Shown: piece by piece, positions 1 through 10,314 of the stretch
Position numbering within the stretch: position 1 is the stretch's first letter
How the letters are laid out: each line of letters starts with the position of its first letter
Assembly (NCBI GenBank): GCA_026397315.1
Contig: JAPLVC010000007.1
Span: 64,001 to 128,000, forward strand
Origin: Candidatus Aenigmatarchaeota archaeon
GTDB lineage: Archaea; Aenigmatarchaeota; Aenigmatarchaeia; QMZP01; QMZT01
Length of the DNA stretch: 64,000 bases
Direction: 5' to 3'
The notes under the pieces: model-generated
What the model was told of the DNA's origin: nothing
The model's database searches: none
The model's input: the letters and a program-made list of their open reading frames with translations, nothing else
Program-made: the position numbers and the translations under genes

Positions 1-126
1 TAATTCCGTCACGTTCGCGCCGGATACCGTCTTCACGTCGCCGGGCGCGCCCCTATGGACGAACGTTATTTCCGCCTTCGCGAGCGCGCCTGTCCACTTG
101 AGCCTGTTGAGCGTCTCGAAGGCCAT
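1..126 (-). CDS. DUF504/MJ1316-like (UPF0248) protein, N-terminal part; runs off the window edge
   Basis: Manual translation MAFETLNRLKWTGALAKAEITFVHRGAPGDVKTVSG...; LNxLKW and (I/V)HRGAPG motifs typical of archaeal DUF504. Confidence 0.75.
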   Translation of the reverse strand, partial: MAFETLNRLKWTGALAKAEITFVHRGAPGDVKTVSGANVTEL

Positions 127-164
127 GTTTATTTTTGTCCCGGGGAATTAAATCCTTGGGAGCG

Positions 165-290
165 TCAGAACTCGAAATAAACGCTGAGAGCGTCGCTCTT
201 GCCGCATCTCGGGCATGCGCTGGCGGGCTTGAAAACTATGCCGCACTTGTTGCACATCCTCTTCTCGACCAACGCTTTTTCCCGGCTCAT
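165..290 (-). CDS. 41-aa CxxC...CPxCG zinc-finger microprotein
   Basis: Manual translation MSREKALVEKRMCNKCGIVFKPASACPRCGKSDALSVYFEF*; below the ORF-track cutoff; co-oriented between the metallophosphoesterase and DUF504. Confidence 0.7.
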   Translation of the reverse strand: MSREKALVEKRMCNKCGIVFKPASACPRCGKSDALSVYFEF

Positions 291-330
291 GAAAACAATC
301 CTTTATTTCTTTGCGCGCCGGCTTAAAAAA

Positions 331-1044
331 TCATTCCTCGTCTTTGATGACTTTTATTGCGAGCGTGCCGAGGTCTATGGAAATTATTTTCGCGTTCCCC
401 GGGTTGACGCACAGCGTGCGCCCTATCTTCTGCTTCATGCTTTTCGAAACTCCCGGCGACTCGTGGATGTGGCCGTGCAGCGTCAGCATCGGCTGCGCGT
501 CCTCGATGAACCTGCGTATAGCTTCGCTGCCTTTATGCTCGCCGTTGTGGAGCATGTCCAGCTTCGTCCCCAGCGGCGGCGCGTGGAAGACGAATATCAT
601 CTTTTCCATATCGAGCCTGGATGACATCGCCTTCAGCTCCGTGTATATTTCCTCTTCGGTTTTCTCCCAGTCTTTCAGCAGGAACGGCGTGGGATTTATG
701 TAAGGATATCCTGCGATGGTCCATTCTTTATGTCTGTAAGACTTCCTGTGAAGCAGCATCGCCGTCCTGAGCTTGCCTGCCTTTTTCAATATTTTGAAAT
801 TCGCCTCGAAATCGTCGTTGCCCATCATGATGAAGACGGGCTTCTTGGCCTGCTTCTTGAATTCTTTCAGGCGCGGGGTCAGGTAGAACTGGAGGAAAAA
901 TGCCTGGCCGCTCGGGTTCACGCCGGAAGTGATGTCGCCGCCGAATACGATGGCGTCTATATCGCTAGCTCTCGCAAGCTCGAACACGCGCTCGTATACC
1001 TTGACGATACCATGGACGTCCGTCACGTAGAGAATTTTCGTCAT
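331..1044 (-). CDS. Calcineurin-like metallophosphoesterase (Icc/MJ0936-like)
   Basis: DVHG, GGD, GND, H-x-PP and HGHIHE motifs; C-terminal VNPG. Confidence 0.9.
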   Translation of the reverse strand: MTKILYVTDVHGIVKVYERVFELARASDIDAIVFGGDITSGVNPSGQAFFLQFYLTPRLKEFKKQAKKPVFIMMGNDDFEANFKILKKAGKLRTAMLLHRKSYRHKEWTIAGYPYINPTPFLLKDWEKTEEEIYTELKAMSSRLDMEKMIFVFHAPPLGTKLDMLHNGEHKGSEAIRRFIEDAQPMLTLHGHIHESPGVSKSMKQKIGRTLCVNPGNAKIISIDLGTLAIKVIKDEE

Positions 1045-1066
1045 AGAATCACAACTGAGATATTAG

Positions 1067-1177
1067 TGGACTCGTCGGGATTTGAACCCGAGGCCTCTTG
1101 GATGCGAACCAAGCGCTCTCTAGCGACTGAAGCAGGCGAACCTGCTTCCATCGAAATTACCACTGAGCTACGAGCCC
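1067..1177 (-). tRNA. tRNA-Ala(CGC) with a ~39-nt intron in the D-loop (about 1119-1157)
   Basis: Acceptor stem GGGCTCG/CGAGTCC with G3:U70; anticodon arm CTTGG-TTCGCAT-CCAAG; T-loop GGTTCAAATCC; insert with hairpin GAAGCAGG-TTCG-CCTGCTTC between D-loop GGTA and GAGC; CCA not encoded. Confidence 0.92.
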
Positions 1178-1220
1178 GTGTCAAACATTATCTTATTATT
1201 CAGTATATATAACTTAAATT

Positions 1221-1586
1221 ATGCCCGTTTTCGTAGTCCACGAGCATAACGCTTCGCGCCTCCACTGGGACCTCCGCCTGGAGATGGACGGCGTGCTGAA
1301 ATCGTGGGCCGTTCCGAAGGAGCCGCCGTTGGAAGCGAATGTCAAACGCCTCGCGATACAGGTGGATGACCACGCTCTTTCTTATGGGAAATTCGAAGGT
1401 GTCATTAAAGAAGGGTATGGTGCCGGCACCGTGAAAATCTGGGATAATGGAACGTATGAAATCGTGGACAAGAAACCTGATAAAATCGTTTTCAAGATTA
1501 GCGGCAGGAAGATGCGCGGGGAATACGTCCTGCTGAAATTCAAAAAAGCCGACGAAAAGGAATGGCTGCTTTTCAGGAAAGAATGA
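1221..1586 (+). CDS. Stand-alone LigD-type 3'-phosphoesterase domain protein
   Basis: VVHEHxAxxLHWDLRLExDGVLKSWAVPK, DH, GYGAGxVxIWDxG signature. Confidence 0.92.
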   Translation: MPVFVVHEHNASRLHWDLRLEMDGVLKSWAVPKEPPLEANVKRLAIQVDDHALSYGKFEGVIKEGYGAGTVKIWDNGTYEIVDKKPDKIVFKISGRKMRGEYVLLKFKKADEKEWLLFRKE

Positions 1587-1689
1587 CAAAGTTGGTAAAT
1601 ACTTTTTCTAAAAATATCTGTTTTTAAAAAAATTGATTGACTACATGTTTAAACATAGGTTATTATTACTACAATTCCAGAAATCATTA

Positions 1690-2097
1690 ATGACCAAGAT
1701 AATTTATCTCGACACCAACATCTATCTAGATTATTATTTTGATAGACATGGATCTAAAAGAGCATTTGATATAATATTTTTTCGAGCACCAAATTGTGAA
1801 TTCAAAATAGTTGTTTCAGATTGGGTTCTGCGAGAACTTGAACTTAATGGAATTGGTTCAAAAGAAATGAAAACACTTTTCAGTAGAATTTCTGAAAATA
1901 AAAAATTGGTTACAATTTTTACAGAAAAACCAAAGGACATAGACGATGCGAAAAAAATATCATCGGATCATTTTCAAGATCCATTACATGTGATTCTCGC
2001 TAAGAAGGGTGGCGCTGAAATATTAATAACAAGAAATGTACAAGATTTCAACTGTTGTAGGCATCTTTTAGATATCAAGTTTCCTGAAGATATTTGA
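1690..2097 (+). CDS. PIN-domain (VapC-like) ribonuclease
   Basis: IYLDTN, E(L), DxLH and TRNxxDF acidic tetrad; AT-rich. Confidence 0.85.
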   Translation: MTKIIYLDTNIYLDYYFDRHGSKRAFDIIFFRAPNCEFKIVVSDWVLRELELNGIGSKEMKTLFSRISENKKLVTIFTEKPKDIDDAKKISSDHFQDPLHVILAKKGGAEILITRNVQDFNCCRHLLDIKFPEDI

Positions 2098-3240
2098 TGT
2101 ATCTTCCTTCGCAAATTCTTCAGCTATTTTTCTTCTTTCATCTTTCGTAGTCTTCTTCTCTTCAATTATTTTCATCAAAGTCCTGTATTTTTCAAATTCT
2201 TTAAACTCAGTTTCTTTCAATTCATCAACTTTGCACAGATCTCTCAAATAAGAAACGTATTCAATCGCTAACCTTTCATTTATTATGAAATAAATATCAA
2301 GATATGATTTGAGCGTGTTTTTGTCATAACCAATTTTTAAAAGACTTTCAAAAAGATTATATGTGGTTATCATATCCCACACAATTCGCATAGTGTCTAG
2401 TATTTCTGTCCTCAATTCGTTTATTTCATCAGATTTCATAGTTTTTAGCATGTAAATTGTAGTTGAAATAAAATCATTCAATATCTTTGCAGCATTTTCA
2501 GTTTCCTCATTTAATTTAAAATTAAATCCAATCTCCATTAGAATATCTCTTATTTTCAATTTGTTTTCATCATTTAATTCAATAATACCAAAATTTTTCT
2601 CAAATTCAAACTGTCTGAGATAGAGTAAATTTTTAGATTTTATATATTGTCCCTTTCTCATATACACCGAATTGTGATCTTTTTCTTTCTCAACTATTCT
2701 ATTTATGCATTCGTTTATCTCACTCTCATTTTTAACGGACGTGTAACTATAATCCTTTGTTGGGTCATATAATTTTAAGCAAAGTTCACCGAACCTGTAC
2801 CAAACTAATGGTACATCTAGATTACATTCCTGTACTATATCTACAAGTAATTTTTGAACTTGTGTTTTGTTAGGATAATAAGTCGTCTTCTCTTTCCAAG
2901 TTTCTCTAATTTTCATAAAAAGGAAATTTACTAAATTATCTTGTTCCGACTTAATCGGTATTCCGAAAAGCGTTCCTGAATTTTTTTCGGGAGAACTTGT
3001 GCAAGATTTCAAAGTGAAAACTCTTTTGTTTCCTTCTGCTCTCTCAACAGCGATTCCGGATTCTTCTAGCATCTCCAAATATTTGCGCACACTATCCCAT
3101 GTCGTTCCGGTTTCGCCGGCAACTTCATAAATAGATTTGGGGCCTTTTTTCAGGGATTCGATGACAGATTGAACAACTTCGCGGCTGGTCTTCTTGGCAC
3201 TACCCCTGCCAGTTGTCATGTTAATAATATTGGTAACCAT
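2068..3240 (-). CDS. Winged-HTH protein with central Panacea/DUF4065-like segment and helical C-terminus; putative antitoxin/regulator
   Basis: N-terminal SIYEVAxETGTTWDSVRKYLEMLEESGI HTH; KTQVQKLL...WYRFG resembles the DUF4065 QKLLY...WxxGP pattern. Confidence 0.55.
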   Translation of the reverse strand: MVTNIINMTTGRGSAKKTSREVVQSVIESLKKGPKSIYEVAGETGTTWDSVRKYLEMLEESGIAVERAEGNKRVFTLKSCTSSPEKNSGTLFGIPIKSEQDNLVNFLFMKIRETWKEKTTYYPNKTQVQKLLVDIVQECNLDVPLVWYRFGELCLKLYDPTKDYSYTSVKNESEINECINRIVEKEKDHNSVYMRKGQYIKSKNLLYLRQFEFEKNFGIIELNDENKLKIRDILMEIGFNFKLNEETENAAKILNDFISTTIYMLKTMKSDEINELRTEILDTMRIVWDMITTYNLFESLLKIGYDKNTLKSYLDIYFIINERLAIEYVSYLRDLCKVDELKETEFKEFEKYRTLMKIIEEKKTTKDERRKIAEEFAKEDTSNIFRKLDI

Positions 3241-3356
3241 ATTTAAATATCACCATATCAGCATAGACTAATTTTAAATAAGTAGAATGAATAAAAGCTT
3301 TATATACTTAATTGCAAATACTATATAGTTATTTGAGTATAGTAATGGAGGTAAAA

Positions 3357-3629
3357 ATGAGAAGAATCGTTAAAAGAGTAGTGGATGGCGATACTTTGGA
3401 AGTTAATCGTAATATAAATGGGACTAGATTTGTAAGACTCGCCAATGTAAACGCACCCGAAAGGCATCAATTTGGTGGAAGAACAGCGACAAAAACATTA
3501 ACCGGCCTTGTAGGCGGTAGATCGATAACACTAACTCCTGTAGCAAGGGACGTTTATGGAAGAGTAGTCGCCGAAGTCAGATGTGGAAGACAAAGTATCA
3601 ATCGTAAAATGAAGAAAAGAGGATATTAA
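3357..3629 (+). CDS. Minimal thermonuclease (SNase) family protein
   Basis: VVDGDT, VRLxxVNAPE and DxYGR motifs; GGAGGT RBS; lacks the usual C-terminal helices and signal peptide. Confidence 0.85.
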   Translation: MRRIVKRVVDGDTLEVNRNINGTRFVRLANVNAPERHQFGGRTATKTLTGLVGGRSITLTPVARDVYGRVVAEVRCGRQSINRKMKKRGY

Positions 3630-3651
3630 AAATATATCAAGGGAGGAAATC

Positions 3652-3804
3652 ATGATAAAAATAATCGCTATAGCAACAGGACTCGCAGCTGTACTTGGAC
3701 TTGGTAGCATTCTTCTTTCAAGTCTAGGCAATAATACTTGGCCTGTATTTTTGTTTGCAGCAATATTTGTTTTTTTAATCGGTATACTCGTTAAAAAAAT
3801 ATAA
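3652..3804 (+). CDS. 50-aa two-TM membrane microprotein
   Basis: Manual translation MIKIIAIATGLAAVLGLGSILLSSLGNNTWPVFLFAAIFVFLIGILVKKI*; GGAGG RBS. Confidence 0.65.
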   Translation: MIKIIAIATGLAAVLGLGSILLSSLGNNTWPVFLFAAIFVFLIGILVKKI

Positions 3805-3889
3805 TAAGATAAAAAACACCCATTGAAAAACATTTTGTTAGATTTGATAATTAAATCGTATTTTAACCAGAACGACAAAATATTTTCTT

Positions 3890-4426
3890 ATGATTGACAT
3901 TTACACGCTCGTCGAGGCCGTGTGGATTCTGTGGCCGGCGTACGGGGCGAACGGCCTGTGCATGCTCGCGCATGGGAAGCGGGTCATCGATGGCGGACGC
4001 ATGTGGCGCGGCAAACAGATTTTTGGCCCGGGCAAGACATGGGAAGGTCTGCTGTTCGGCGTGTTCGTTGGCGCGCTCGTCGGGACGATTCAGATGCTCG
4101 CTTACCCGTTCCTGCCATGGGAGCTTTCCCCGGTCGCGCTTTCGCTGGTCCCCATGACGCCGCTCACGGGCGCGCTCATAGGCCTGGGCGCGCTGCTCGG
4201 CGACATAGGCGGCTCGTTCATAAAGCGACGCCTGGGCATCGCGCGAGGCAAACCAGCGCCAATCCTGGACCAGCTCGATTTCATAGCGGGAATGCTGATT
4301 GTGCTGGCGTTCGTGTATCCGCTGAAATGGGAATGGGTCGTGATATTGGCGATAATGACGCCGGTCTTCCACCTGCTGGCGAACAGGATAGCCTACATAC
4401 TGAAGCTCAAGAACGTGCCTTATTAG
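3890..4426 (+). CDS. carS: CDP-archaeol synthase
   Basis: PAYxAN, IDGG, GxGKTWEG, GDxxGSFIKRRLG and LDQLDF motifs. Confidence 0.92.
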   Translation: MIDIYTLVEAVWILWPAYGANGLCMLAHGKRVIDGGRMWRGKQIFGPGKTWEGLLFGVFVGALVGTIQMLAYPFLPWELSPVALSLVPMTPLTGALIGLGALLGDIGGSFIKRRLGIARGKPAPILDQLDFIAGMLIVLAFVYPLKWEWVVILAIMTPVFHLLANRIAYILKLKNVPY

Positions 4427-4447
4427 AAAGATAAAAAATTACTCAAT

Positions 4448-4606
4448 TTACTTCTTTTTTGCGAGCCTGATTAATTTTTTGACCTTGGAAGCCTTGCTCT
4501 TGTTGCTGGGGCCCCTGCCTTTGTTCTTCACGTGCTTTAATTTTTTATGCGTCTTGTGCACCTTTTTCTTCAGCGGTTTCCTGGAAACTTTTTTTCTTTT
4601 GACCAT
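4448..4606 (-). CDS. 52-aa extremely basic protein (21 Lys, 4 Arg, no acidic residues)
   Basis: MVKRKKVSRKPLKKKVHK...LAKKK; alternative start at 4612; directly downstream of the structured RNA. Confidence 0.6.
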   Translation of the reverse strand: MVKRKKVSRKPLKKKVHKTHKKLKHVKNKGRGPSNKSKASKVKKLIRLAKKK

Positions 4607-4628
4607 CTGCATCCCTGATAAACAAATA

Positions 4629-4851
4629 GCTGACAACTGGACTCGGTGAAAGAGTTCCTCAAACAACCATCGATTGCATTCTTAACCTACCGACGTGCTT
4701 TAGAGGTGATCTCATTCGCGCCATACAGAAGCTTAACAAGCGCAGGTTTCGTGCGGTGAGTTATAGTCCAGACACCACATTAATGGCTGAGCGCCTGACA
4801 GAGGCCTATATGGACACATCCTTTTCAGGACAACCGAAATGTCCTGTCAGC
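4629..4851 (-). ncRNA. Putative structured non-coding RNA, family not recognised
   Basis: 7-bp terminal stem GCTGACA/TGTCAGC; several internal helices with G.U pairs mostly valid on the minus strand; GC-balanced within AT-rich intergenic DNA; TATA-like element about 25-30 nt upstream. Confidence 0.6.
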
Positions 4852-4872
4852 AGAGATAATTATATGATGTGA

Positions 4873-4885
4873 TATATATATTTAT
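4873..4885 (-). promoter_or_regulatory. TATA-like box for the putative ncRNA/basic protein transcript
   Basis: ATAAATATATATA on the minus strand about 25-30 nt upstream of 4851. Confidence 0.5.
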
Positions 4886-5100
4886 CTGACTACTTATTGG
4901 TCAATAAAACACAACGCATTTAAAGTAAAAAACGATATGCATCGACCAATAAATTCCGGCTAATAGCGATTTTTTATTTTTCCAAAATATATAATCCAAA
5001 AGTTAAATTCGTTATAAACACATAATAGCGCTTCCTGTTTAAATATTTATGCGTTATTCAATTTGTTTTTTAACCACGATTGTAAAATATTATTGTCTTT

Positions 5101-5697
5101 ATGCAGGGGAAGTTCATCGTCTTTGAGGGAATCGATAAGTCGGGCAAGCACACGCAATCGCGCATGCTCTTCGAATACCTGCGCAGACGCGGAGAGCGGG
5201 TGATGTATACTGAAGAGCCGACTGCGGACAACCCCGCCGGGCGCGCTATAAAGGATTGGTTGGCAGGAAAGTTCGAGCTGAAGAGCGGCGAGGCGATAAC
5301 GCTTTTGTATACTGCTGACAGATACGAACATCTTAAACAAACGATACTGCCGTCGCTGGAAAAAGGCATGACGGTGATTTCGGACCGATACTTCTATTCG
5401 ACAATCGCCTACGAGTCGGCGATATTCAACGTCGACCCGAAATGGATACGCGAGCTGCACGAGAAGGCACGCAGGCCGGACGTCGTGATATTCATCGACA
5501 TCGCGCCGGAGATATCGCTCAAGCGGCGACGCGCCCGCCCGGACGACAGGCTGGAGAAGGTCGAACTTCTTACTAAGGTCAGGGAAGCATACAAGAAGAT
5601 GATGGATGAAGAGCGTTTCTTCACCGTCGACGGGAACCGGACGAAAGAGGACGTCTTTGCCGACGTGAAAAAAATCATCGACAGAATTTTGGCCTGA
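5101..5697 (+). CDS. tmk: Thymidylate kinase
   Basis: FIVFEGIDxSGK P-loop, EP, DR and DRYxYSxxAY motifs. Confidence 0.95.
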   Translation: MQGKFIVFEGIDKSGKHTQSRMLFEYLRRRGERVMYTEEPTADNPAGRAIKDWLAGKFELKSGEAITLLYTADRYEHLKQTILPSLEKGMTVISDRYFYSTIAYESAIFNVDPKWIRELHEKARRPDVVIFIDIAPEISLKRRRARPDDRLEKVELLTKVREAYKKMMDEERFFTVDGNRTKEDVFADVKKIIDRILA

Positions 5698-5783
5698 AAC
5701 GTCTCCTGCCCAACAGGCCGGATTGAAAGTGACGTAAAAACCAATAAATACAAAGACTGGTAAAATTAGGTTATCTGAGGCGT

Positions 5784-6536
5784 ATGTTCTCAAAGGTTTT
5801 CATCGCATGGAAGAGGGATTACGGCGAGCAGATTGTTCTGAGGGTATGCTCCATACTGCGCGAAGCGGGCGTACCATACGCGTTTCACGAGCCGGAAGAC
5901 TGCGATTTCGCGATAACGGTCGGCGGCGACGGCACGGTTCTCATGTTCCAGTCATCGCTGGAATGTCCCATTCTCGGCATAAACCCGGGCAAGTCTGTAG
6001 GCTTTTACACGACAGCGAATGCCAGGGACTTCGAGGCTAAACTGAAAAGGCTGCTTAACGGGAAAGAGGGCAAGGACTATTTCATCAGGGAGTTCACCAG
6101 GATAGAGGCAATGCTGAACAGGAAGCTTCTGCCTTTCAGAGCGCTCAACGAAATCCTCGTTTCACCCATATTCGTCAGGAGAATGCTGAACTCCAGCCTG
6201 GAAACAGGTGGCAGGAAATCGTTCGAAAGAAACTCGGGCATACTGGTTTACACGCCGAGCGGCTCAAACGCCTTCGCCAAATCAACCGGTGCGAAGCCAC
6301 TGGGCACGAACGGCCATTTCGGCGTGGCTGCAATCGCTCCGTACGCCGGAAGACTGAAGAAAAACATCGTCCTGGACAAGGGTCATGTCATGATAACATG
6401 TCTCAACGACGAAGGCGAAGTCTGCTTCGACGGCCAGGAAGACCAGGTCTCCCGCATAAAAGAGAATGACGTCATCTTCGCGAGGAAGAGCGACAAGCCT
6501 GCCAAAATCGTCTGCTTCTCAAAAAAGAAAGCGTGA
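5784..6536 (+). CDS. nadK: NAD(+) kinase family protein
   Basis: GGDGT, GIN, ALNE and TPxGSxAF motifs. Confidence 0.85.
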   Translation: MFSKVFIAWKRDYGEQIVLRVCSILREAGVPYAFHEPEDCDFAITVGGDGTVLMFQSSLECPILGINPGKSVGFYTTANARDFEAKLKRLLNGKEGKDYFIREFTRIEAMLNRKLLPFRALNEILVSPIFVRRMLNSSLETGGRKSFERNSGILVYTPSGSNAFAKSTGAKPLGTNGHFGVAAIAPYAGRLKKNIVLDKGHVMITCLNDEGEVCFDGQEDQVSRIKENDVIFARKSDKPAKIVCFSKKKA

Positions 6537-6572
6537 AGCGCCGGAAAACAATGGCGCGTTCTGTAAATCAAA

Positions 6573-7862
6573 TCAGTATCTTCTGCCGCGACTTTCGCTT
6601 CTGCTGTGGCCTGACGGGCTGCGGTAGCCGCCATGGCTTCCGCCGCGATGGCCTTCGTGGCCTCCGCGACCGTATCCGCTGCTGCGTTGGCCGTAGCGCT
6701 GGCCCTGGTGACCTTCCCTGCGCTCGCGGCCTGCGTGCGGGTTGAACGGAATCCTTCTGAAGTCGGGTCGCTCGCCAGCAACTATGTTCATCTCCGGGTT
6801 TTCGCGCAATATGCGGCGGAAATTATCGTAGTCGCCGTCGGACAGTATCGTTATCGCGAGACCTGATTTGCCTGCGCGCGCGGTCCTGCCAACCCTGTGG
6901 ATGTAGTCATCGCGTTTCTCCGGAACGTCGTAGTTGAACACGTGCGTTATGCCCTTTATATCAAGGCCGCGGGAGGCGACATCAGTAGCGATGAGCACTT
7001 GCACTTGGCCTGCGTGCGTCTCGCCTATTATGCGCTCTCGCTTGTTCTGCTCGAGGCCGCCGTGTATCACTTTGGCGTCGATTCCCTGTATCTGCAGGTT
7101 CTTCGCCACAGCATCCGCTGTGTGTCGCCTTCCGCAGAATACGAGAGCGAGCTTCGGCTTCTCATGCTGCAAAAGGTGCACGAATAACGAGAACTTCTCG
7201 TTCTCCTGCACATCGTAATATATTTGGTGTAGCAGTTCCGGCTTCACGTGACGTTCGGTCTCTATGCTGACCGGTTTCTCCATGTAACGCTGGCTTATGC
7301 GGAAGACCGGACCGGGCATCGTGGCGCTGAAAAGCATCGTCTGTCGTTGTCGCGACGTGTGGCGGATTATGCGCTCGACGTCGTCGATGAAACCCATGTC
7401 CAGCATGCGATCCGCTTCGTCGAGGACGAGATATTTCACGTGCGACAGGTTTATAGTCCTGCGTTCGAGGTGGTCCAGTAACCTGCCAGGCGTTCCTACC
7501 ACAATGCTCGCTGTTTTAAGCGCCTGTATCTGCGACTCGATGGGCACGCCTCCGTAGACGCTCGCGACCTCGGCCATCCTGTAGTCCGTCAGCTTGACGA
7601 ACTCCTTCATTATCTGGTTTGCCAGCTCCCTCGTCGGCGTTACTACCAGCGCCTGGACACCCTTGCCATGCTCCACCTTTTCTATGATGGGTATCGCAAA
7701 AGCAAGCGTTTTCCCGGAGCCGGTTTCCGACTGGGCTATGACATCCTTCCCCTCTTTTATGAGGGGTATGCACTCCTTCTGTATAAGCGTCGGCTTCTCG
7801 AAGCCCGCCTTCTTGAGAATATCAAGTATTCTCGGTTCTATTCCTAATTTTTCAAATGACAT
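6573..7862 (-). CDS. DEAD-box RNA helicase with Gly/Arg-rich tail
   Basis: TGSGKT, PTRELA, DEAD, SAT, RGLD and HRVGRTAR motifs. Confidence 0.96.
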   Translation of the reverse strand: MSFEKLGIEPRILDILKKAGFEKPTLIQKECIPLIKEGKDVIAQSETGSGKTLAFAIPIIEKVEHGKGVQALVVTPTRELANQIMKEFVKLTDYRMAEVASVYGGVPIESQIQALKTASIVVGTPGRLLDHLERRTINLSHVKYLVLDEADRMLDMGFIDDVERIIRHTSRQRQTMLFSATMPGPVFRISQRYMEKPVSIETERHVKPELLHQIYYDVQENEKFSLFVHLLQHEKPKLALVFCGRRHTADAVAKNLQIQGIDAKVIHGGLEQNKRERIIGETHAGQVQVLIATDVASRGLDIKGITHVFNYDVPEKRDDYIHRVGRTARAGKSGLAITILSDGDYDNFRRILRENPEMNIVAGERPDFRRIPFNPHAGRERREGHQGQRYGQRSSGYGRGGHEGHRGGSHGGYRSPSGHSRSESRGRRY

Positions 7863-8135
7863 CTATATCACTCCTTTTAAGCATGTAAACTTTTTGCAGT
7901 AAACGTTGTTTACTTGGGTTTACAGTTGTCAAAGACGAAAACAGAATTAGTATTCATCGCCAAGAGGCGGATGATCCCAACGCCGTTTTTCGCATTGTGC
8001 TTTGTTAATTAATATAGTGCATATTTATAAAGGTTAAAGCCTGCCTATCCCGCCTGGTCCGGCCATGGCGACGAACGCGACTACTGACGGGCTGGACTCA
8101 GTTTTTATATCAGAATAGACTATTTGTATATTATT

Positions 8136-8972
8136 ATGAACAAGGTTCTGAATTTTCTCATCCACAGCAACATATATCTTGGCCTGAGCGCGAGCGCGGT
8201 CGCGTATCTCTGCATGGTCCTGCTCGGCATGCCCATATACTGGCAGCCCATGGTCATCGCGTTCTGTGTCACGTTCTTCCTCTACAGCCTTAACAGATAT
8301 ACCGACATGGAGGAAGACAGGATAAACTACCCCGACAGGGTCAAGTTCATCAAGAGCAGCGGCAAACCAGTCTTTTACTTTTCAGCCGCCCTTTACGCGT
8401 TCTCGCTCTACCTGGCGTTCACCAACAGCATAGCCAGCTTCATGATAGCGCTCGCGCCGTTCATACTGGTCTTCTCCTACAGCGTCATCCGCCTGAAGAA
8501 GCTGCTGATATTCAAGAACCTTATAGTCGCCTTCGGCTGGGCCATGGTCGCTTTTCTCGCGCTTTCCTACACGCACCCTGTGAGCTATTTCGAGCCGCTG
8601 AGCATGTCGGTGTTCATGTTCTTCTTCATACGCGTGCTCATAGACACCGTCGCTTTCGACGCCCAGGACGTGGAGGGCGACAAGGTCAGTCGAGTAAGAA
8701 CGATAGCCAACACCTTCGGCATCACCAAGGTCAAGACCATATGCCACGCGCTCAACATCTTCATGATAGTGTTCTTCCTGCTCGCGTGGAATTTTGACAT
8801 CAGCAACATGCCCATCACGGCGAACCTGATAATCATCTGGTCGTTCCTTTACATGTTCATGATAAACCGCTTCGGCGTCAAAGGGGTAACGGACGTGATA
8901 TCGGAAGGCGAGCTCATTCTCCTGGGGATTGTCGTCTTCGCCATCCAGAACGCCCAAGCGCTTCTGCTGTAA
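8136..8972 (+). CDS. UbiA-family prenyltransferase
   Basis: NRxxDxxEDxxNxPxR and DxxDxxGD motifs; multiple TM helices. Confidence 0.88.
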   Translation: MNKVLNFLIHSNIYLGLSASAVAYLCMVLLGMPIYWQPMVIAFCVTFFLYSLNRYTDMEEDRINYPDRVKFIKSSGKPVFYFSAALYAFSLYLAFTNSIASFMIALAPFILVFSYSVIRLKKLLIFKNLIVAFGWAMVAFLALSYTHPVSYFEPLSMSVFMFFFIRVLIDTVAFDAQDVEGDKVSRVRTIANTFGITKVKTICHALNIFMIVFFLLAWNFDISNMPITANLIIIWSFLYMFMINRFGVKGVTDVISEGELILLGIVVFAIQNAQALLL

Positions 8973-8991
8973 AAACGGTTAAAAAAACTGT

Positions 8992-9903
8992 TCAACATAA
9001 CGTGCTCAGCGGACATGCCAGACATTTGTCCTTTGCCGTTTCCATTCTAGTCAAAAGCTCTTTCATACTCGTGCGCGGGTCGCCGATTTTTACAATGCCT
9101 TCACAACAGCTGAAAACGCCGTAAGGGTTCAGTGAGATGTAAGTCTTTATGTCGCCGGGGCCGAATGGCACCAGCTTCTTCTCGTCTCTGAACCTTTTGC
9201 CGTATTTTGCCGCGACTATCCTCTTCATTTCTTCGCTGGGCAGCATCAGCGAGTCGTCTATCGTCCTGCGCGATATGGTCTTTGAAAGCGTCATGGCGCC
9301 TTTCATCTCCCTGTTTGAATACGGGAAGGTCAGATTTAGCCTTATCCTGCGGTCCACGTCTCTTTTCAGCTCGTCCTCGAAGTCAGCCAGCCTGTTCGCA
9401 TTGCCTTTGGTCACTATCGTTCTGACCTTCACCCCTTCGCATCCGAGCTCGTATGCCCGCCTGCAGAACCCGACTGCTTTCTCATACGTACCTTTGCCCC
9501 TGTTCCATTCGTGGTGGTCTTTGGGGCCGTCTATGGAAACGTGGAACGTCACGTTGTTCAGCCTTTCGAACTCGTCCAGCCTGTCTATGGTCCCGTTGGT
9601 GACGATGAAGTGCTTCACTCCCCGGCCAACGACTCCCTTCATGAACCAAGCGCTCAGGCTGTTGATGACTTCCGGGAATTTGGCGTGCAGGAAGATCTCC
9701 CCGGTCCCGCACCAGAAAACGCCGAAACCGAGCCTTCTTTCCCTGCCGAATCTCCCGACAAAATCGACAAGCGCATCTTTCGATATTTCCTTCCGCCCCT
9801 TGCCGTTAATGACGTTGGAATAGCACATCCTGCATTTCAGATTGCAGGCGGATATGGGCTCTACGTAGAGGCCGCGTCTCTCAATGACGACCCTTTTCTC
9901 CAT
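8992..9903 (-). CDS. Radical SAM protein with short Cys-rich C-terminal (Twitch-like) region
   Basis: CNLKCRMC, TNG and SIDG motifs; C-terminal CC...CxxC...C. Confidence 0.88.
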   Translation of the reverse strand: MEKRVVIERRGLYVEPISACNLKCRMCYSNVINGKGRKEISKDALVDFVGRFGRERRLGFGVFWCGTGEIFLHAKFPEVINSLSAWFMKGVVGRGVKHFIVTNGTIDRLDEFERLNNVTFHVSIDGPKDHHEWNRGKGTYEKAVGFCRRAYELGCEGVKVRTIVTKGNANRLADFEDELKRDVDRRIRLNLTFPYSNREMKGAMTLSKTISRRTIDDSLMLPSEEMKRIVAAKYGKRFRDEKKLVPFGPGDIKTYISLNPYGVFSCCEGIVKIGDPRTSMKELLTRMETAKDKCLACPLSTLC

Positions 9904-9987
9904 GACATTAGTTGCCGTTCTGATTTTATAAAAATCCCCTTCCAGAAAGATATATATAGGCCCGGGCAATTATATAACAGGATTTCT

Positions 9988-10314
9988 ATGAACAAGGAAA
10001 CAATCGGTAGATATGCATTTATCATTGGATTAGTGATATCAGTGATAGCCGGTTTCGTAAGCCTTGGGACAACGGGCCTTGCAGCTCTTGTCGTTCTGGG
10101 ACTCATAGTCGGGTTCCTTAACGTGACGGGCGAAGAGGTTCAGAAGTTCCTTTTAGGCACGGTTGCGCTTATGCTTGTGGGCCAGGGTCTTCATTCCGTG
10201 ATGGCCACGGTTCCGCTGGTGCCGGATATACTTGCGGCATTCGTCTCATTCGTGGCAGGCGCAGCACTGATAGTGGCACTCAAGGAAGTCTACACGATAA
10301 CCAAATCCAAGTAA
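9988..10314 (+). CDS. Small multi-TM membrane protein
   Basis: MNKETIGRYAFIIG...; about four hydrophobic helices; GLIVGFLNV motif. Confidence 0.7.
   Translation: MNKETIGRYAFIIGLVISVIAGFVSLGTTGLAALVVLGLIVGFLNVTGEEVQKFLLGTVALMLVGQGLHSVMATVPLVPDILAAFVSFVAGAALIVALKEVYTITKSK

Follow-up and report, generated by a model that had tools for sequence, protein, structure and literature searches.

What is the long, stable fold that lies between carS and tmk in an aenigmatarchaeal genome, directly ahead of a reading frame for a tiny and extremely basic protein? The locus is on the minus strand of a 64,000-nt stretch (hereafter the window; positions 64,001 to 128,000 of contig JAPLVC010000007.1, assembly GCA_026397315.1) of Candidatus Aenigmatarchaeota archaeon, known from a metagenome-assembled genome (MAG) of ~1.05 Mb that is 91% complete. 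In order, window positions 4883-4433 hold a TATA-like box, a 223-nt RNA, a spacer, a 52-aa open reading frame (ORF) and a run of six T. A sequence-only reading had proposed here a novel non-coding RNA, ribozyme or cis-regulatory leader, with a dedicated RNA-binding peptide. We find that the RNA belongs to a family with extensive covariation, having more than 110 distinct copies in MAGs of four DPANN phyla, and that it is almost always followed by a member of one micro-protein family. Judged by database comparison, the RNA class and the RNA/micro-protein pair are without a catalogued relative in Rfam 15 or Pfam.

The RNA family and its fold

On searching 371 genomes of the phylum with BLASTN, matches of 73-82% spanning exactly 4851-4626 were found in five other genomes of different families, and downstream of these came matches to the 3′ half of the ORF. 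Homology to relatives thus begins at 4851 and ends at 4626, which bears out the strand and the boundaries proposed earlier. A covariance model (CM) named R1, built from an alignment of eight sequences (A3), brought in more divergent members. Also, one genome per prokaryotic species was scanned for the invariant motifs CTGGACTAYAACT and CACCGRGTYCAG with 96-126 bases between them, which gave at least 119 loci; by record title the matches listed come from Nanoarchaeota, Woesearchaeota, Pacearchaeota, Micrarchaeota, Iainarchaeota and Aenigmatarchaeota, the second and third of these being counted with Nanoarchaeota in the four phyla. Every one of the fetched loci is a full-length CM match (120-250 bits). 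The RNA is present in 27 of 101 sampled genomes of one Nanoarchaeota order (Pacearchaeota-type), several of them with two copies, and in 6 of 151 genomes of the class to which the window belongs; its share in Aenigmatarchaeota is 2-4%. The CM search found a single copy in the genome of the window, and a 35-nt match at G000:C1:27920, considered as a second copy, lies inside a membrane-protein coding region and was put down to chance. Viral contigs gave no matches to the RNA. A divergent subfamily scores 58-75 bits (L064:1501-1850, L065:1501-1880, L211:401-800). Eleven RNA-bearing contigs (L083, L090, L093, L105, L109, L112, L123, L126, L129, L136 and L145) are titled 'Methanosarcinales' or 'Saccharibacteria', labels that are probably binning or taxonomy errors, since their RNAs nest among the Nanoarchaeota copies in the tree.

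The minus strand folds with a minimum free energy of -79.4 kcal/mol (z -3.27, none of 200 dinucleotide shuffles being as good), and the plus strand gives a z of -1.74. For the eight sequences of A3, RNAalifold returned 67 pairs and showed compensatory double changes at 34. With 88 distinct sequences, 92.7% of the cells are in standard pairs as against 35-41% when the partners are slid, and 55 of the 67 pairs have changed on both sides; none of 500 shuffles reached the observed values. This alignment was fitted to the model, and part of its members had been picked by the two loop motifs. For this reason the count was made again with the 37 sequences that BLAST or CM alone had brought in (A6). 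Here 93.5% of the cells are in pairs, and double changes are seen at 64 of 73 pairs. Over all these counts the slid controls have 30-42% of cells paired. Covariation of this kind rules out a chance fold, and on its evidence the RNA is a real conserved fold with a closing stem of P1, P2 and P3, a four-way junction, a GNRA-capped P4, two long arms and two pseudoknots (Table 1). The junction joins P3, P4, P5 and P8 with hardly any linker bases, and the loop of P4 is GRAA in nearly all members. Several loops, among them CUGGACUAUAACU, GCCUCU and AGGUUAAG, are nearly invariant across the four phyla.

Both pseudoknots came from direct inspection and a mutual-information scan, and for both the covariation is also seen in the sequences obtained independently of the motifs. 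Through them the two long arms are joined with one another and with the 3′ strand. PK1 is found as CUGAAC/GUUCAG, CUGGGC/GCCCAG, CCGGAC/GUCCGG and AAGGGC/GCCCUU in variant members. PK2 held the top covarying pair beyond the nested structure in the scan (U-A 68, C-G 16), and L046 has it as CGUCU/AGAUG. The first four bases of the PK1 partner GUCCAG double as the 3′ strand of P2, such that P2 and the P7 loop compete for GUCC, and these two mutually exclusive pairings each show covariation. As P2 is the weaker of the two and shares GUCC with PK1, we regard PK1 as secure; P2 may be an alternative state.

On this comparative structure the pairings proposed from the single sequence can be sorted. 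The 7-bp terminal stem is present and covaries as P1, the folding is better than that of shuffled sequence as stated above, and the long 3′ hairpin with CCUC/GAGG, AAGC/GUUU and CGUCGGU/AUCGAUG corresponds to P9, a P9 extension and P10. Pairing of UUCGGU with ACCGAG, taken for a pseudoknot, is real, the helix being P3 and nested. The 5′ hairpin of GGACA with UGUCC is wrong, because UGUCC belongs to P4, where it pairs with AGGAU (22 of 88 sequences have compensatory changes there). The arm of GUCC..AGGC with GUCU..GGAC, together with its GCCAU/GUGGU hairpin and the CGCA/UGCG hairpin, gives way to the covarying P5, P6 and P7. Three further ideas were tried and given up. A UUAA/UUAA kissing pair that would link the P10 loop with the P5/P6 joint was dropped, as mutual information favours AACCU/AGGUU. 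A K-turn at GCGAAUGAGAU and an 11-nt tetraloop receptor at UAUGG were rejected on inspection only, their sequences being in helices or junctions unfit for those motifs. A decayed coding region was also discarded, for the plus strand has only short, out-of-frame ORFs and covariation favours an RNA.

Table 1. Features of the locus, in window coordinates (helix strands are given 5′ strand first).
Feature	Position	Strand	Remarks
TATA-like promoter box AAATATATATAT	4872-4883	minus	21-32 nt before the first P1 base (G4851); read from sequence
Structured RNA domain	4629-4851	minus	223 nt, ~48% G+C; 251.6 bits with model R1
P1, 5′ strand GCUGACA	4845-4851	minus	pairs with 4629-4635; compensatory changes at all 8 P1 pairs
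P1, 3′ strand UGUCAGC	4629-4635	minus	covarying
P2, GGAC/GUCC	4844-4841 / 4642-4639	minus	91% of cells paired; A-U to G-C in 6 sequences
P3, UCGGU/ACCGA	4837-4833 / 4647-4643	minus	nested helix; 99% of cells paired; G-C to A-U in 6 sequences
P4 hairpin GUCCU-GAAA-AGGAU	4818-4831	minus	GNRA tetraloop at 4826-4823; U-A to C-G in 15-22 sequences
Arm P5-P6-P7	4718-4817	minus	encloses P5, P6 and P7
P5	4817-4808 / 4726-4718	minus	covarying
P6	4797-4791 / 4743-4737	minus	compensatory changes at every pair
P7	4779-4773 / 4758-4752	minus	compensatory changes at every pair
P7 loop UCUGGACUAUAACU	4759-4772	minus	14 nt, nearly invariant; CUGGAC (4771-4766) forms PK1
Arm P8-P9-P10	4648-4717	minus	encloses P8, P9 and P10
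P8	4717-4711 / 4654-4648	minus	comparative alignment
P9	4706-4703 / 4660-4657	minus	comparative alignment
P10	4695-4689 / 4674-4668	minus	comparative alignment
PK1, CUGGAC with GUCCAG	4771-4766 / 4642-4637	minus	96% paired; 4 of 6 pairs changed on both sides (sequences not motif-selected)
PK2, AACCU (P7/P6 joining strand) with AGGUU (P10 apical loop)	4748-4744 / 4688-4684	minus	92% paired; 5 of 5 pairs changed on both sides
Spacer	4607-4628	minus	22 nt, with Shine-Dalgarno-like AGGG (4616-4613); no T run of 5 or more
52-aa protein ORF, including stop codon	4448-4606	minus	25 Lys/Arg, no Asp/Glu; ATG 22 nt past the RNA
T6 run	4433-4438	minus	likely archaeal terminator, 10-15 nt past the stop codon

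Comparison with known RNAs gave no match over the locus, in line with the absence of RNase P, signal recognition particle (SRP) and tRNA signatures from the initial reading. At gathering thresholds the 4227 models of Rfam 15 found only tRNA-Ala in the whole window; over 4300-5100 a threshold of E≤10 let through three chance matches, none of them on the strand or in the region of the RNA; and at E≤5 nothing was found over the RNA in 17 homologous loci. ARAGORN, run on window positions 1-10000, gave only tRNA-Ala at 1068-1142 and no tRNA or tmRNA at the RNA. The genome has its RNase P RNA candidate at G000:C7:82001-82334 (L001), which covers the full model length with 58 bits against RF00373 (cut-off 84) and is, on that length and score, a divergent DPANN RNase P RNA. 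Its SRP RNA is at G000:C2:42846-43126 (RF01857, 106 bits, over the cut-off). Since both are on other contigs and most relatives lack the RNA studied here, its identity with either was rejected. At 4703-4713 the RNA has GAGAUCACCUC, of which 9 nt (GAUCACCUC) are in common with the 3′ end of the 16S rRNA of the same genome (GGAUCACCUCC; G000:C7:77866). Mimicry of this 3′ end, that is of the anti-Shine-Dalgarno, was considered and rejected: the family consensus at this place is AGAUAACCUU, and as most members carry GAUAACCUU the match is probably chance. Simple motif searches found no rRNA counterpart of the RNA, and full-text searches of the published literature found no description of the family. 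The proposal of a novel structured RNA is in agreement with these results and with the covariation.

The micro-protein partner and the transcription unit

An ORF of one micro-protein family comes next on the same strand after 100 of the 113 distinct RNAs. It is 36-91 aa long (median 53), has 50% Lys+Arg and 1% Asp+Glu on average, and contains the motif GRxPSxKSKxSKVxKLIKLAK. The window ORF is as described from its sequence alone. RNAs without a standard ORF are those at contig ends, one with a GTG start and the first unit of a recent tandem duplication; no such ORF was found at five loci, and three divergent RNAs (L064, L065, L211) precede a small basic Cys-rich relative that keeps the VKxxIK helix motif. 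This relative has four Cys (MVCPKL...C...C...VKMIKHK...C) and may be a zinc-knuckle variant of the partner. In the reverse test, nine loci were fetched by way of five members of the protein family, and in 9 of 9 the RNA was directly upstream. Transporters or enzymes never followed the RNA in the loci sampled. Counting both directions, the RNA is with few exceptions accompanied by the micro-protein family, in that order, which upholds the dedicated basic peptide of the sequence-only reading.

A profile search of 1.8 billion representatives gave 107 clusters (~50% identity) for the protein, all of 31-121 aa, with 'hypothetical protein' as source name where they are named and the others left uncalled. 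There was no match in Pfam, no relative in a profile search of the PDB with ribosome structures included, and nothing in the Atlas. Most genomes of the lineage lack the micro-protein. Given the family alignment, AlphaFold2 leaves residues 1-37 without predicted secondary structure and places a confident helix at 38-51 (mean predicted local distance difference test score of 94-98 per ten-residue block over residues 31-50); the protein is therefore predicted to have a disordered N-terminus and one C-terminal helix. The window and L044 differ synonymously (TCC/TCT, AAG/AAA, GTC/GTA), and such differences between phyla point to selection at the protein level. Two hibernation factors, aS21 and Sri, were rejected as relatives of the protein, the first having two zinc knuckles and the survey of the second pooling proteins of 100-500 aa (PMC7005279, PMC13004131).

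The promoter claimed for the window copy, ~28 nt ahead of the RNA, recurs in the family. Among 83 boxes that match at least 7 of 8 positions, 61 sit 25-34 nt before the model start, and a comparable TATA-like box within 70 nt after the RNA is seen in just 10 of 111 members. T runs of 5 or more occur in the spacer between RNA and ORF in 14 of 100 members and within 60 nt past the stop codon in 45 of 99. In L071 (3884-4343) two diverged full-length copies of the RNA stand head to tail, with one TATA box before them and a single micro-protein ORF after. As read from these signals, the locus is one self-contained transcription unit made of TATA box, RNA domain, short spacer, micro-protein gene and T-run. 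The start codon lies -15 to +141 nt from the model end over the family (median +10), and in about half of the members the ribosome-binding site is at or inside the 3′ strand of P1.

Two other observations concern the upstream region. Just ahead of the TATA box, at 35-44 nt from the start of the RNA (4884-4900 in the window, with corresponding sites in the family), 27 of 112 members have a motif like AGTAGTCAG (GTRRTHA), as against ~9 expected from shuffles; it may be a regulator site in a subset of members. At L045:1490-2055 (L108 is identical) a recent tandem duplication of 333 bp comprises promoter, RNA and the first ORF codons, and has left the ORF of the first unit truncated.

Selection and spread of the module

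From carS (3890-4426) to tmk (5101-5697) the distance is 675 bp in the window, ~40 nt in the closest relative (G003) and ~30 nt in G002. The Tmk of G003 is 94% identical to that of the window, and the module is absent at the same site. A metagenome contig, L040, carries the same module at the same place, and a comparison of the two copies gives the following identities: 70% for tmk and 74% for carS (third codon positions ~50%), 74% for the upstream spacer, 94% for the promoter block (4852-4883), 94.2% for the RNA (13 substitutions in 223 nt), 73% for the spacer between RNA and ORF, 77% for the 5′ half of the ORF (two 3-nt indels, frame kept) and 92% for its 3′ half. The limits of conservation coincide with the proposed ends of the RNA. 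Judged by these identities, RNA and promoter are under strong purifying selection. In the 3′ half of the ORF (window 4448-4537) third codon positions are 93% identical to L040, as against ~50% in the flanking genes, and this could be due to synonymous constraint or to mosaic recombination.

In a maximum-likelihood tree of the RNA the Micrarchaeota copies form one clade, and the eight Aenigmatarchaeota copies are scattered among those of Nanoarchaeota. The approximately unbiased (AU) test rejects a single Aenigmatarchaeota clade (log-likelihood difference 100, p = 0.012), on the weak basis of 235 columns under structural constraint and with a FastTree tree already seen beforehand. The scatter in the tree, along with presence and absence among close relatives, argues for horizontal spread; the module is accessory and patchy, and by these comparisons appears to have been moved horizontally. 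No vehicle for such spread was found. Neither integrase nor transposase was found at the loci, and the junctions show no repeat or target-site duplication against the empty site in G003 and G002; on these marks the module is not an autonomous mobile element (IS, integrative element or provirus). Over 91 loci there is no conserved neighbour family, the commonest being found in 7. The spacer between carS and tmk (window 4427-5100; also L006, L007, L010, L012, L016, L020 and L022) is an insertion hotspot with unrelated cargo in other relatives: a possible haloacid dehalogenase (HAD)-type hydrolase ORF in L020 and L022, recognised by eye, and other small ORFs in L010, L012 and L016.

What the RNA-peptide pair may do

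The reading that we favour, to which we give about an even chance, is that the peptide binds the 5′ domain of its own message. The RNA would be the 5′ domain of the mRNA of the micro-protein, and the basic peptide would bind it to form a ribonucleoprotein assembled in cis. Binding, with the choice between P2 and PK1 for their common 3′ GUCC, would then feed back on translation, and P1, where it adjoins the start site, would contribute to this feedback. The leaders of ribosomal proteins (L1, L10, S15) are comparable in that the gene of a small and very basic nucleic-acid-binding protein shares its transcript with a structured RNA immediately ahead of it, and in that the ribosome-binding site adjoins the closing helix. 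The present case differs from them as the partner is no known ribosomal protein (Pfam and PDB being blank) and is accessory; the RNA, of 223 nt with two pseudoknots, is much larger, and its conservation far exceeds that of its protein; and rRNA mimicry could not be shown for it. P4, which is GCCCU-GAAA-AGGGU in L043, resembles boxB of phage lambda (GCCCU-GAAAA-AGGGC), which is likewise bound up with a short basic one-helix peptide, N, of the arginine-rich-motif kind. Unlike boxB, P4 makes up little of its 223-nt fold, and there is no sign here of transcription antitermination.

Several results weigh against binding of the peptide to its own leader. The spread of distances from P1 to the start codon given above means that sequestration of the ribosome-binding site cannot be universal, and a Shine-Dalgarno-like motif was seen, by a simple pattern, in 38 of 100 members. 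The support for P2 comes from few independent changes, and its 5′ strand is missing in 4 or 5 members. Near-invariance of loops and junctions across phyla is commoner in ribozymes and metabolite aptamers than in protein-binding leaders. Also, tandem RNA copies such as those in L071 are a classic riboswitch trait.

A wider claim, which we put forward tentatively and as possible rather than probable, is that the pair is a DPANN-specific and horizontally exchanged ribonucleoprotein, made of a double-pseudoknot RNA of ~225 nt and a dedicated polycationic peptide of ~50 aa, and would be a new class of functional RNA-protein particle, beyond a gene-control leader; the RNA might be catalytic or directed at the translation machinery of the cell or of its host. 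The orphan bacterial OLE RNA (with OapA/B/C) and raiA motif RNA offer a likeness, being lineage-restricted, highly conserved multi-helix RNAs that came from comparative genomics and have a linked partner gene. The RNA here is archaeal (DPANN), smaller than OLE and without a model match to those Rfam families, and its partner is a polycationic peptide of ~50 aa on the same transcript.

A riboswitch for a small molecule or ion, that is an aptamer in the 5′ untranslated region (UTR) that switches between P2 and PK1 or opens P1 and so controls translation of the peptide, would account for much of what is seen: the 5′ UTR position in a single transcript, the compact doubly pseudoknotted fold with nearly invariant junction and loop bases, two mutually exclusive helices that both covary, a P1 that adjoins the start codon in about half the family, and the tandem copies in L071. 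We nevertheless hold it to be unlikely, as at least 100 of 113 RNAs go with a single small-protein family and none was seen before transporters or enzymes, the protein is never without the RNA in the loci sampled, an accessory and horizontally moving unit is unusual for a metabolite sensor, and there is no candidate ligand. As to an expression platform, P2 and PK1 compete for GUCC and both covary, and no conserved Shine-Dalgarno-sequestering pairing was found in the family, with the distance to the ATG variable. The glmS ribozyme-riboswitch has in common with the RNA a pseudoknotted 5′ UTR element of a similar size class before one gene family over a wide phylogeny; it has no sequence or model similarity in the Rfam scan, and here the downstream gene is that of a micro-protein and not of an enzyme, in an accessory module.

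We consider it distinctly unlikely that the RNA acts in trans, as a released RNA or a ribozyme on a target of the cell or host (ribosome, tRNA or other RNA), with the peptide as chaperone or cofactor and the linkage serving only to secure co-expression. Near-invariance of CUGGACUAUAACU, GCCUCU and AGGUUAAG in four phyla would fit this, as would a size and complexity of fold comparable to small ribozymes and the long spacers before the ORF in some members. Bacterial RNase P RNA works with the small basic protein RnpA, and an RNA with a tiny basic protein recalls that pair, which is alike also in the long-range pseudoknot pairing of its structured RNA. Unlike it, the RNA matched no RNase P family model (RF00373 included), showed no CR-I/CR-V motifs in the sequence-only reading, occurs in a genome with an RNase P RNA of its own elsewhere and is not universal in the lineage. 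Release is hard to reconcile with the scarcity of T runs between RNA and ORF noted above, and no conserved processing signal was noticed there. No complementary target of the conserved loops was found in the genome apart from the RNA itself, and the intramolecular pseudoknots largely use them up.

Very unlikely, in our estimate, is a selfish or addiction module of the toxin-antitoxin kind, where the RNA would restrain a harmful polycationic peptide and the unit would spread horizontally. Its patchy distribution (27 of 101 genomes in the one order, 6 of 151 in the class of the window), its presence in the window and L040 and absence at the same site in G003, the two copies in several genomes and the result of the AU test would all agree with this. 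Neither of two known types fits: the small toxins of type I systems are hydrophobic, and in type III the antitoxin RNA consists of short tandem repeats. The type III systems pair their repeat RNA with an endoribonuclease of ~170 aa, unlike the single 223-nt fold and the one-helix protein of 36-91 aa found here. We know of no antitoxin RNA as elaborate as one of 225 nt with two pseudoknots. That no integrase, transposase, repeats or target-site duplications were found at the loci, and no matches in viral contigs, also speaks against it. Lastly, a divergent universal RNA (RNase P, SRP, tRNA-like or an rRNA fragment), or a decayed gene that folds by chance, has a negligible probability and is effectively refuted, for beside a terminal stem, a multi-branch shape and the 9 nt in common with the 16S 3′ end there stand the RNase P and SRP RNAs on other contigs, the blank ARAGORN and Rfam results, the absence from most relatives, a family consensus that is not anti-Shine-Dalgarno, and the covariation, which excludes chance.

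New structured RNA classes of such size and covariation are rare to our knowledge, and few archaeal ones of this complexity are catalogued. Here, more than 110 distinct copies are spread over four phyla, and the fold has two pseudoknots along with nearly invariant loops. The archaeal small proteome also gains a micro-protein family that had no annotation (~107 clusters at 50% identity). As an RNA-peptide pair of 223 nt and 52 aa it is compact, well defined and open to synthesis. If the RNA is a riboswitch or a ribozyme it would be a new class of these. That the tiny, ~1-Mb genomes of DPANN archaea keep, duplicate and apparently exchange a module of 450 bp argues for a strong selective or selfish function, and if the pair is truly a ribonucleoprotein it may bear on the translation of these symbionts or on their interaction with the host.

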